Shown here one piece after another: positions 7,277 through 9,757 of a stretch of DNA of 28,240 nucleotides (position 1 is its first letter; each line of letters opens with the position of its first letter). The stretch spans positions 1-28,240 of the forward strand of contig JACRAV010000403.1 in NCBI GenBank assembly GCA_016213305.1. The letters are read 5' to 3'. The stretch is from Candidatus Zixiibacteriota bacterium (GTDB lineage Bacteria > Zixibacteria > MSB-5A5 > GN15 > FEB-12). Both the position numbers and the translations under genes were made by a program. The notes under the pieces were generated by a model. It searched no databases. It saw nothing but the letters and a program-made list of their open reading frames with translations, and was not told the origin of the DNA.

Positions 7277-9757
7277 TCAGCGGCGGGAGCGGGCGGCCCG
7301 GGAATACTTACGTTTGTGATTTTTCCTGCGACGGGCCTTCTTGATCTCGTCCACGAAGATGCGCTTGAGCGAATGGGTTGTGGGGACCGGCTTCTGCAGG
7401 CAGAGTTTGAACAGTTCATCTACCCGCTCGATATAGTGAAACTCAGTGTGACGGAGGATGTCGCGCGGCAGATCCTTAATGTCCTTCTGATTTTCCTTGG
7501 GGAGCACGACGGTCTTGATGCCGGCGCGATAGGCGGCCGACACCTTCTCCTTGACGCCGCCCACCGGCAGGACTTTGCCGCGCAGGGTGACTTCGCCGGT
7601 CATGGCGATGTCGTTGCGGATCGGGCGATCCGACATCACCGATGCGATCACCAGGCAGACGGTGATACCGGCCGAGGGGCCGTCCTTCGGGATGGCGCCC
7701 GACGGGAAGTGGATGTGAATATCAAACTCGCGGAAGTCGTTGGCGTCGATCCCCAGCATATCGGACTTGGAGCGCACATATGAGTGGGCGGCCTGAATCG
7801 ACTCGCGCATCACCTCGCCGAGCGATCCGGTCGTGATGATCTGCCCCTCCCCTTTCATTCTCAGTCCCTCGATGAACATCAGTTCGCCGCCGGCGCCGGT
7901 CCAGGCCAACCCCGCCGAGATACCGACTTCGGGCTTAAGCTCCGCCTTTTCTGGTATAAACACCGACGTTCCCAGAAAGGACTCAAGATTCTTCTCGGTG
8001 ATCAGCCACTTGGATTTCGGTTTCTCTGGTTTGGCCAGATCGATTTTGCGGCAAATCTTCTCCATCTGCTGGGAGAATCCGAGGAGGCCGGCTTCCTGAG
8101 TATAGTCGTTGATAATTTTGGCAAGCACCTTGTCGGAGATATTGAACTCGTGGCGCGCGATCCCGTGTTTTTTGAGCAGATTGGGAATGATGTACCGCTT
8201 GGCGATGACGATCTTTTCTTTTTCGATATACCCCGGCAGTTCCACCAATTCGAGACGCGGGACGAACTGCTCGGGAATCTCCTCGAAGGTGCGGACCGAG
8301 CAGATGAACATCAGCTGGCTCAGGTCGAACGGCACACCGAGGTAATTGTCGAGAAAGCGGGCATTGCGGCGCGAATCGATCACTTCGAGCAAAGCCATAT
8401 TGACGGAGGAGTTGTTGTCGATGTTGAAGTAATCGAGGTCTTCGATCAGCACCACGGCGTCACAGGTGCCGATCTCCCTGAGCGTGCGGATGATCTTGCC
8501 GGGATAGGAGCCGAGATAGGTTCGGGGCGAGCCTTTGAGTTCGGCCACTTCGGTAATACCGCCGACCGATATCCGGACAAATTCTTTGCCGAGCGCGCGG
8601 GCGATCGCCTTCGCCATCGAGGCCTTCCCCGTTCCGGGGGCGCCGACCAGACACAGGGTGGGGCCTTCATCGCCGGCGGCCAGCCGCCGCACGGCCAGTT
8701 TCTGCATGATTTGTTCCTTCAGCACTACCGGGCCGAAATAGTCCGAGGACAACACTTTTTCCACATCGGCCATCTGAAAATCGTGGGAGGTACTCTTGCC
8801 CCACGGCAGGTTCAGAATCCAGTCGAGGTAACTCTTGGTGGCGCCGTACTCGGCCGACGCCGGCGACAACTGGCTGAGACGGTCTACTTCGATCTTGGCC
8901 CGCGCCACCACTTCGGGCGGGAGATGCGACGAGCTTTTGATCATGTTGCGCAGGCGGGCCGCTTCCTTCTCCTCGGAGAAATCCTCGCCCAACTGCCGTC
9001 GAATCTCGTGCAACTGCTGGCGCAGATAATATTTTCTCTGCTCGTCCTGAATGCGCTGTTTCGTATTGCGGTTGACCGACAGGACGGTGACCACCCGGTC
9101 CAACTCGCCGTTGAGATAGTACAACAAGCGCTCGAACCGGAAATCGAGATTCAACGCTTCCAGCAGTTCCTGCTTGGAGGCCAGCGAGAAGTGGAAGGCC
9201 GCCGCTACCCGGTCGGCGAAGAGCGACGGGTCCTCGACGTTCATCTTGATGACGTTCGACAATTCCGGCGAATAGGTCGGATCGAGATGGGTCAGTTCAT
9301 TGACGACGGCGATGACTTCATCCATGCGGGCACGGATAATGCGCGACACAAACGGGGCCGTTTCGGCCTCGGCGGCCAAGGCGATGATATACGGTTCGGT
9401 GGCGACGACATCTTTGAGAATCGCCCGCGAAATGCCCTCGATCGTCACCAGCAACGACCCACCCGCACCCGCCTGAACCGAGCGGACCTCGGTAAACACG
9501 CCGACCTGATGGATCGGCTGGGGACCGGAGGTTTCCACCTCGGCTCTGGAATACGACGAGACAAACCGGCCGCCGCTTTGTTGGCAGGTCTCGATCAATT
9601 TCACGTTTTCGGGACGCCCGACCTGGATGGAAAAGGTCATCCCCGGAAACAACACACCGGTCATCAGCGGCAGGACCGGATAGTCCGAGAGCTTGTCGGC
9701 GCTGATCGTCGGTACCCGGCTCTGACTGCGTATCAATATCTGCTTTGGCGCGTCCAT
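7277..9757 (-). CDS. lon: LonA-type endopeptidase La with degenerate AAA+ motifs
   Basis: LON N-domain (PVLPL…VLFPG), AAA+ module, S16 protease domain with PKDGPSAG (Ser) and GGVKEK (Lys). Walker A reads GAPGTGKA and Walker B reads VVLIED. Confidence 0.92.
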   Translation of the reverse strand: MDAPKQILIRSQSRVPTISADKLSDYPVLPLMTGVLFPGMTFSIQVGRPENVKLIETCQQSGGRFVSSYSRAEVETSGPQPIHQVGVFTEVRSVQAGAGGSLLVTIEGISRAILKDVVATEPYIIALAAEAETAPFVSRIIRARMDEVIAVVNELTHLDPTYSPELSNVIKMNVEDPSLFADRVAAAFHFSLASKQELLEALNLDFRFERLLYYLNGELDRVVTVLSVNRNTKQRIQDEQRKYYLRQQLHEIRRQLGEDFSEEKEAARLRNMIKSSSHLPPEVVARAKIEVDRLSQLSPASAEYGATKSYLDWILNLPWGKSTSHDFQMADVEKVLSSDYFGPVVLKEQIMQKLAVRRLAAGDEGPTLCLVGAPGTGKASMAKAIARALGKEFVRISVGGITEVAELKGSPRTYLGSYPGKIIRTLREIGTCDAVVLIEDLDYFNIDNNSSVNMALLEVIDSRRNARFLDNYLGVPFDLSQLMFICSVRTFEEIPEQFVPRLELVELPGYIEKEKIVIAKRYIIPNLLKKHGIARHEFNISDKVLAKIINDYTQEAGLLGFSQQMEKICRKIDLAKPEKPKSKWLITEKNLESFLGTSVFIPEKAELKPEVGISAGLAWTGAGGELMFIEGLRMKGEGQIITTGSLGEVMRESIQAAHSYVRSKSDMLGIDANDFREFDIHIHFPSGAIPKDGPSAGITVCLVIASVMSDRPIRNDIAMTGEVTLRGKVLPVGGVKEKVSAAYRAGIKTVVLPKENQKDIKDLPRDILRHTEFHYIERVDELFKLCLQKPVPTTHSLKRIFVDEIKKARRRKNHKRKYSRAARSRR

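Follow-up and report, generated by a model that had tools for sequence, protein, structure and literature searches.

Can a LonA protease lose the chemistry of its ATPase and still be maintained by selection? This question is raised by a gene on the reverse strand, at positions 7277-9757, of a 28,240-nucleotide (nt) stretch of DNA from a Candidatus Zixiibacteriota bacterium (GenBank assembly GCA_016213305.1, contig JACRAV010000403.1), below called the window. A sequence-only reading of this DNA had noticed that the product, a full-length LonA, combines degenerate ATPase motifs with an intact protease dyad; it suggested selection rather than decay and proposed either an ATP-independent protease or a regulatory subunit that mixes with a canonical Lon. 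We use Lon2 as a working name for the LonA-derived paralog encoded at this locus. The source assembly is a fragmented metagenome-assembled genome (MAG) of 444 contigs, estimated to be 84.7% complete. With moderate confidence, we favor the view that Lon2 is a LonA-derived protease independent of ATP hydrolysis, in which the nucleotide would serve the AAA+ ring as a structural or allosteric ligand.

Domain Architecture and Active Sites of Lon2

The lon2 open reading frame (ORF) is open throughout, starts with ATG, and encodes 826 amino acids (aa). The Pfam domains follow in the LonA order (LON_substr_bdg, residues 26-216; AAA, 368-503; Lon_lid, 529-573; Lon_C, 586-788), and two of the features that define LonA membership, the N-domain with the helical region and the single AAA+ module with a Lon lid, are present. 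Lon2 scores 696.4 bits with the TIGR00763 model of endopeptidase La (cut-off 608.05), but with the stricter NF008053 (PRK10787) model it reaches only 554.6 bits (cut-off 891). In HMMER alignments with solved LonA structures (7p6u from Thermus, E = 3e-168; 6u5z from E. coli, E = 2e-161) it is matched end to end, and the motif regions, including those of the protease domain, are free of gaps. An AlphaFold2 (AF2) model based on an alignment of 70 sequences gives confident predictions for every domain (mean predicted local distance difference test score, pLDDT, 85), and in its AAA+ core the strands follow their usual order, so that the AAA+ fold is kept. With canonical LonA (MEROPS S16.001; the E. 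coli and Thermus/Meiothermus enzymes, structures 7p6u, 6u5z, and 7fd4), Lon2 shares the domain order, the A-type Ser-Lys protease, the Arg finger, the aromatic residue of pore-loop 1, and the spacing within both active sites. The first acidic residue of Walker B lies 61 positions after the Walker A Lys (K378 to E439), the same distance as from K362 to D423 of the E. coli protease, EcLon (PMC9569914). In descent and architecture, Lon2 is a LonA.

In P-loop NTPases, the Walker A hydroxyl is a ligand of Mg2+, and the Walker B Glu activates water. The ATPase center of EcLon is formed by Walker A (residues 356-363), Walker B (419-424), N473, R484, and R542 (PMC9569914), and the roles in LonA of the Arg finger, sensor II, the pore loops, and the base loop of the PS1 β-hairpin, the last a member of the trans-ATP-interacting group, have been documented (PMC8503904). 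We compared these positions in 116 cluster representatives of canonical LonA and in the 120 closest orthologs of Lon2, retrieved at 61-100% identity from a collection of 5.8 billion proteins; those of the 120 that carry a name are Zixibacteria or GN15 proteins called "endopeptidase La".

Four of the five defining features of the LonA ATPase are missing from Lon2. Position 379, the Thr of Walker A, is Ala in all 120 orthologs and Thr or Ser in all 116 canonical proteins, so that the GxxGxGK[T/S] pattern is broken; in 16 of the 120 the next residue is Ala as well (GKAA). The acidic pair of Walker B is inverted, with Glu instead of Asp at position 439 and Asp instead of the catalytic Glu at position 440, both without exception in either group, which departs from the hhhhDE pattern; at position 443 the Lys of DEIDK (116/116) has become Tyr (119/120). 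The sensor-1 Asn, N473 in EcLon and invariant in the canonical set, corresponds to Arg489 in every ortholog, and the equally invariant sensor-2 Arg (R542) corresponds to Leu559 in 110 of them. Pore-loop 2 has Asn448 throughout, at a position that is aromatic in 83 of the 116 canonical proteins (F 46, Y 28, W 9). The base loop at residues 461-463 reads D-S-R instead of D-P-E, with Arg463 in 120/120 orthologs and Glu in 85/116 canonical proteins, and the box II His of "DHYG" is replaced by Tyr340. What is retained are the P-loop glycines, Lys378, the Arg finger (Arg501, R484 in EcLon; Arg in all sequences of both sets), and the aromatic residue of pore-loop 1 at position 414 (116 of the 120: F 65, Y 34, W 17), which is Tyr in the window protein.

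Structure alignment thus confirms what the sequence-only reading had seen, namely the degenerate Walker A (GAPGTGKA), Walker B (VVLIED), and sensor-1 (SVR) at the coordinates of Table 1, along with the preserved pore-loop Tyr (RTYLG), Arg finger (PRLE), PKDGPSAG, and GGVKEK. The changes at Leu559, Asn448, residues 461-463, Tyr443, and Tyr340, as well as a polybasic C-terminal tail, come in addition.

The protease site, in contrast to the ATPase site, is that of a regular LonA. The catalytic Ser and Lys are 43 positions apart, as are S679 and K722 of EcLon, and the site is of the A type, Ser695 being preceded by Pro694 in 120/120 orthologs; in LonB an Asp stands before the catalytic Ser (PMC9569914). 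Lon2 also has an added C-terminal extension with a net charge of about +12. Its median length and charge are 40 aa and +12 in the 120 orthologs versus 21 aa and 0 in canonical Lon, and the extension is thus a feature of the Lon2 clade.

Since the hydroxyl that binds Mg2+, the Walker B Glu, and both sensors are gone, turnover of ATP by Lon2 seems very unlikely, a judgment that we make with considerable confidence. At the same time, the invariant P-loop glycines, Lys378, and trans-acting Arg finger suggest that the interface between subunits continues to bind nucleotide.

Fixation of the Substitutions and Selection

At the altered positions listed above, the alternative residue occurs in 92-100% of the 120 orthologs, which is far beyond chance. 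We found 27 sites that are conserved within both the Lon2 and the canonical group but with different residues; all of them fall at residues 340-563, within the AAA+ module, most in its large subdomain and none in the N-domain or the protease domain.

Synonymous sites are saturated when the window gene is compared with its closest relatives, at 84% and 71% identity (proportion of synonymous differences, pS, about 0.7), and a metagenome scan for Lon2 relatives found none closer than 84% identity. For this reason the ratio of nonsynonymous to synonymous substitution rates (dN/dS) was taken from another, unsaturated pair of the same family (L070/L027; dS 0.40). It is 0.011, and none of the 176 codons of the AAA+ large subdomain carries a nonsynonymous difference in this pair. 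Pairs farther apart, in which dS is saturated, give values of at most 0.1. Purifying selection on the whole protein is extreme, which strongly supports the earlier suggestion that the losses reflect selection and not decay.

The fragmentation of the MAG could raise the suspicion that this lon copy is decaying or was inactivated not long ago, or that the substitutions are artefacts of assembly or binning. We give this practically no weight. The ORF is intact, the same residues recur in 120 orthologs from many samples and are therefore not peculiar to this assembly, and the low dN/dS, a gene order shared by 18 of 20 genomes, and a clade congruent with taxonomy (see below) exclude it further.

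Other Lon Genes and the Origin of Lon2

Lon matches were extracted from 121 Zixibacteria genomes. The complete genomes of the window's order have three full-length LonA genes, namely Lon2 and two canonical ones, c1 and c2, with all ATPase motifs intact, and the sampled genomes of the order have two to five full-length Lon matches each. A second, canonical lon, whose presence the sequence-only reading had proposed to check, is indeed encoded in the window assembly: c2 is found on contig C79 (L002), its 5' end cut by the contig edge, and c1 is represented by its N-terminal 344 residues, encoded where contig C399 (L054) ends. Each of four complete relatives examined encodes two full canonical LonA proteins beside Lon2. 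Around the catalytic Lys, as seen in this assembly and in L046-L053, c1 has GGL[KR]EK and c2 has GGLNEK; the c2 gene is followed by an engB/ysxC-like GTPase gene. Lon2 is 35-38% identical to these canonical paralogs and unlinked to their genes.

The genome also encodes a LonC-type protein of 870 aa (contig C242; L085:1173-3785, reverse strand) with the LonC_helical, AAA_32, LonB lid, and Lon_C domains. Its Walker A motif reads GMSGTGRST, with Arg in place of Lys, and it, too, ends with a polybasic tail.

The paralogs differ in where constraint is strongest. When the same pairs of genomes are compared, identity in c1 and c2 is highest in the AAA+ large subdomain (81-88%) and lower in the protease domain (55-72%). 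In Lon2, identity is highest in the protease domain, at 73-83% (94% for the two genomes of the genus), and amounts to 55-75% in the AAA+ large subdomain. As the order of constraint is inverted, selection on Lon2 is heaviest at the protease domain, unlike in canonical LonA. The motor module of Lon2 is somewhat relaxed overall, yet frozen at the remodeled pocket.

In phylogenetic trees, all degenerate LonA copies of Zixibacteria form a single clade (Shimodaira-Hasegawa-like support 100 in FastTree, 69 rows; SH-aLRT 99 in IQ-TREE under LG+G4, 46 rows). Its internal branching tracks family and order, and c1 and c2 are placed apart from it, at two other positions within the canonical radiation. Some branches are long, so that attraction may have affected the deepest nodes. 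The agreement with taxonomy favors one ancient duplication and vertical inheritance ever since, and as far as these trees can tell, Lon2 belongs to an old clade of vertically inherited LonA paralogs, found so far almost only in Zixibacteria.

Every sampled member of the clade lacks the sensor-1 Asn and a canonical Walker B motif. The catalytic Glu position is occupied by D, N, G, or A, and in those members that keep Glu there, the preceding Asp has become Glu. Other lesions are specific to lineages and include Ala for the Walker A Thr, Arg for the Walker A Lys, and the loss of sensor-2, the Arg finger, or the pore loop. The window protein has the set of substitutions typical of its own family, and close variants occur elsewhere in the order (GKAS or GKAT, ED..E[YC], and R, K, or S at sensor-1). 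The Arg finger is invariant in this order alone; it is absent from several deeper branches (families f6, f10, and f16, our labels), and in the sampled genomes of families f9, f11, f12, f14, and f17 the best Lon match is canonical.

The aromatic residue of pore-loop 1 is gone from the Lon2 proteins of families f2 (L008, L009) and f3 (L010, L011), where the loop reads RTDIG, RNEIG, or RSMIG; passive gripping by the pore therefore may not extend to the whole order. One f3 ortholog (L010, G072:C17:67833-70286) has an in-frame TAA, its longest ORF coding for 551 aa, and may be a broken copy or contain a sequencing error.

A Candidatus Eisenbacteria sequence (P0142, Walker B DD) is a partly degenerate sister of the Lon2 clade. 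It belongs to a set of proteins from outside the Zixibacteria clade (P0142, P0150, P0154, P0216, and P0223) that have LonA architecture, partly degenerate ATPase motifs, and an intact dyad, with Arg replacing the Walker A Lys in P0216 and P0223. Such proteins indicate that the loss of the LonA motor may have occurred several times.

The spread of states within the clade bears on the possibility that Lon2 still hydrolyzes ATP, perhaps slowly or under different regulation, by means of a noncanonical pocket in which Glu439/Asp440 and Arg489/Arg463 would replace the lost residues. The changes are indeed fixed under very strong selection and not scattered, and Lon2 retains the P-loop Lys, acidic residues at both Walker B positions, the Arg finger, and an aromatic residue in pore-loop 1. 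On the other hand, four independent catalytic or sensing residues are altered, each of them invariant in the 116 canonical proteins; the hydroxyl that binds Mg2+ is missing, and in 16 orthologs the following residue is Ala, too; changes also affect the aromatic position of pore-loop 2 and the trans-ATP base loop; the AAA+ large subdomain is under weaker constraint than in the canonical paralogs; and other branches of the clade are clearly inactivated, having Arg for the Walker A Lys, Gly or Asn at the second Walker B position, or no Arg finger. We consider residual ATPase activity rather improbable.

A different role, as a regulatory subunit in mixed hexamers with canonical LonA, had been raised by the sequence-only reading, whose two functional proposals are each compatible with the data. 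Here the own site of Lon2 would be silent and its Arg finger would be lent to the site of the neighbor, so that Lon2 could tune or brake the motor and contribute its own N-domain and basic tail. The model for such a subunit is delta-prime of the bacterial clamp loader, which binds no ATP, keeps its Arg finger, and is not a protease. It is consistent with this role that Arg501 is invariant among the 120 orthologs while the catalytic residues acting in cis are gone, that the overall ring-forming architecture of LonA is kept, that canonical LonA is co-encoded in the four complete relatives and in the window assembly, and that all sampled genomes of the order have two to five full-length Lon matches. 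However, the retained Arg finger is equally well explained by homomeric rings glued by nucleotide, and its loss in f6, f10, and f16 rules out that the clade as a whole serves to lend it in trans. The low identity to the canonical paralogs and the lack of linkage between the genes also argue against mixed rings, and none have been reported for Lon in the literature searched. This role thus appears unlikely.

Comparison with Other Lon and AAA+ Proteins

A Lon protein without a working motor is already known. LonC (MEROPS S16.007; MtaLonC of Meiothermus taiwanensis and TTC1975 of Thermus) is a hexamer that has no ATPase activity and degrades only unfolded substrates (PMC3391209, PMC13069640). Like Lon2, it has a degenerate AAA-like module with a Walker-A-like GK and without the catalytic Glu, sensor-1, and sensor-2, and Lon2 shows the functional hallmark of LonC, an intact Ser-Lys dyad in a protein whose ATPase motifs are degenerate. 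This is a likeness of function and not of descent. LonC belongs to a LonB-related lineage, lacks the LonA N-domain, and has a LonB-like AAA module with a helical insertion, a disrupted Arg finger, and a B-type protease site with two LonC-specific insertions (PMC3391209). Such a protease domain is not seen in Lon2, where Pro694 precedes Ser695 and the alignment to LonA structures is free of gaps, and by Pfam Lon2 has none of the AAA_32, LonB_AAA-LID, and LonC_helical domains, all three of which are present in the LonC-type protein of the same genome. As Lon2 is a LonA by descent and architecture, its loss appears to be independent of, and convergent with, that of LonC, which by analogy is the best functional counterpart.

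Extra LonA-type paralogs beside a housekeeping Lon, with a presumed specialized role, are exemplified by LonD/BsgA of Myxococcus. AsrA of Pseudomonas is another paralog of this kind, but unlike Lon2 as we read it, it is named an ATP-dependent protease (bioRxiv 10.64898/2026.09.03.749167). The FtsHi pseudo-proteases of plants resemble Lon2 as AAA+-family paralogs that stayed under selection after losing one catalytic activity, although the loss is the reverse one, since FtsHi proteins no longer cut proteins but keep an active ATPase (PMC8197885). In the literature searched, which lacks most subscription journals, we found neither a report of a natural LonA whose ATPase is degenerate nor any work on Lon in Zixibacteria.

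Proposed Mechanism

If Lon2 is a protease independent of ATP hydrolysis, it would form rings of the Lon type in which Lys378 and Arg501 hold nucleotide at the subunit interface without turnover, the nucleotide being a ligand for assembly or allostery rather than fuel. The newly fixed Arg489 and Arg463 might stand in for the lost Mg2+ and the lost charge of sensor-2. The retained N-domain would select substrates that are unfolded or intrinsically disordered, and these would thread passively through the aromatic pore to Ser695-Lys738. Canonical Lon shows the same passive behavior with unfolded substrates in the presence of nonhydrolyzable ATP analogs. Passive threading would likewise resemble LonC, which works in this way (PMC3391209, PMC13069640). 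The polybasic tail, finally, would tether Lon2 to a polyanion (DNA, RNA, or polyphosphate). In the cell, Lon2 would act beside two canonical ATP-driven LonA proteins and the LonC-type protein, and we read it as a specialized protease and not a housekeeping one.

Several points weigh against this proposal. The loss of hydrolysis is deduced from motifs, and the pocket, being remodeled and frozen instead of eroded, could still do chemistry. Lon2 still has what a working motor would keep, namely an acidic pair (ED), the Lys of the P-loop, the Arg finger, and an aromatic residue in pore-loop 1. Homomeric rings are a proposal, and binding of polyanions by the tail is a guess from its composition.

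The frozen pocket (Glu439/Asp440, Ala379, Arg489, Arg463, and Leu559) can also be seen not as a dead ATP site but as a switch that responds to a new ligand or partner. Either another phosphorylated ligand or a metal-free nucleotide would gate a LonA protease that is anchored to the nucleoid or polyphosphate, or Lon2 would be inserted into canonical Lon rings as a built-in regulatory subunit. We put this forward tentatively, as a possibility that is more doubtful than not; if true, Lon2 would be the first regulatory pseudo-ATPase among natural LonA proteins.

Sequence Features and Genomic Context

The features of Lon2 and of its upstream region are listed in Table 1.

Table 1. Coordinates of Lon2 features in the window
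Feature	Position	Strand	Evidence
Complete Lon2 ORF, 826 aa	7277..9757	-	Pfam, TIGR00763, HMMER to structures
LonA N-terminal substrate-binding domain, residues 26-216	9110..9682	-	PF02190, E 4e-32; AF2 pLDDT ~90
Long coiled-coil helices as usual in LonA, residues 217-330	8768..9109	-	AF2 helices 204-255 and 261-316; Lon structure alignment
AAA+ large (α/β) subdomain, residues 331-506	8240..8767	-	PF00004, 58 bits vs 88 bits for canonical paralog
Walker A GAPGTGKA, residues 372-379; Mg-ligand Thr replaced by Ala379	8621..8644	-	Lys378 kept in 119/120 orthologs, Ala379 in 120/120
Pore-loop 1 RTYLG, residues 412-416	8510..8524	-	Ortholog alignment
Walker B VVLIEDLDY; VVLIED is residues 435-440, nt 8438-8455	8429..8455	-	
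Pore-loop-2 position Asn448 (Trp431 in MtaLonA)	8414..8416	-	Alignment; PMC8503904
Sensor-1 segment SVR (canonical TAN), residues 487-489	8291..8299	-	
Arg finger Arg501 in PRLE (R484 in EcLon)	8255..8257	-	Kept
AAA+ lid subdomain including sensor-2 position, residues 507-600	7958..8239	-	PF22667
Sensor-2 position Leu559 (EAGLLG vs canonical EAGVRN)	8081..8083	-	
Lon protease domain, residues 601-790; best-conserved domain of Lon2	7388..7957	-	PF05362, E 3e-82
Catalytic Ser695 in PKDGPSAG	7673..7675	-	Ser in 120/120 orthologs, 116/116 canonical
Catalytic Lys738 in GGVKEK	7544..7546	-	Lys in 120/120 orthologs, 116/116 canonical
Clade-specific C-terminal extension, ~36 aa: conserved helix (TLEKIF..EI..A-like), then disordered polybasic tail	7280..7387	-	AF2 helix 797-812, then pLDDT ~50 or lower
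5'-leader hairpin ATCGGC-N7-GCCGAT, 10 nt before start codon	9768..9786	-	
Promoter-like TTGACA-N18-TACTTG upstream of Lon2 (putative)	9797..9826	-	Read by eye

Lon2 is located 133 nt downstream of a gene encoding a Hel308-like helicase. In 14-kb stretches from 20 genomes (L026-L045 and the window set), compared by tblastn, the one-strand order of the helicase, Lon2, a dockerin-tagged protein, an M1-type peptidase, and the next gene (2238-12716 in the window) was found in 18. This conserved order spans six families (f1, f2, f3, f4, f5, and f18) and is absent from f6 and f10. Because the two genes are part of a larger conserved block, the adjacency of helicase and Lon2 is weak evidence of a functional link.

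The spacers between the helicase and Lon2 genes are 47-323 nt long. A scan of the spacer for consensus promoters and terminators yielded nothing useful and did not report the promoter-like element of Table 1, but a similar pair, TTGACA-N17/18-TAnnTTG, recurs in most of the orthologous intergenic regions (L026-L045). The 3' arm of the leader hairpin, CCGAT(A), is likewise found in most orthologs, 8-30 nt ahead of the start codon, and the varying length of the loop suggests an RNA element and not an operator. CCGATAT also occurs after the promoter with the LexA box, at about 12818-12824.

The helicase operon upstream of Lon2 has a LexA palindrome (about 12840-12855). We considered, and set aside, co-transcription of Lon2 with this LexA-controlled operon: the 133-nt spacer contains no LexA palindrome and has a promoter-like element of its own, and clear intrinsic terminators follow the helicase gene in several of the orthologous spacers. 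Lon2 is therefore treated here as a putative transcription unit of its own.

Significance

LonA is the standard example of a protease that carries its ATP motor in the same chain, and the only ATPase-less Lon described so far, LonC, comes from a LonB-like lineage. Lon2 is a true LonA by its sequence, in which the chemistry of the motor has apparently been lost independently, while the whole architecture is under very strong selection across much of the phylum. Proteins of the Lon2 clade carry the database names "endopeptidase La" or "ATP-dependent Lon protease", which are probably wrong for them. Lon2 would offer a natural experiment on what the N-domain, ring, and pore of LonA do without ATP hydrolysis, and it bears on whether Lon rings may hold silent subunits and whether nucleotide may act in them purely as an allosteric ligand.

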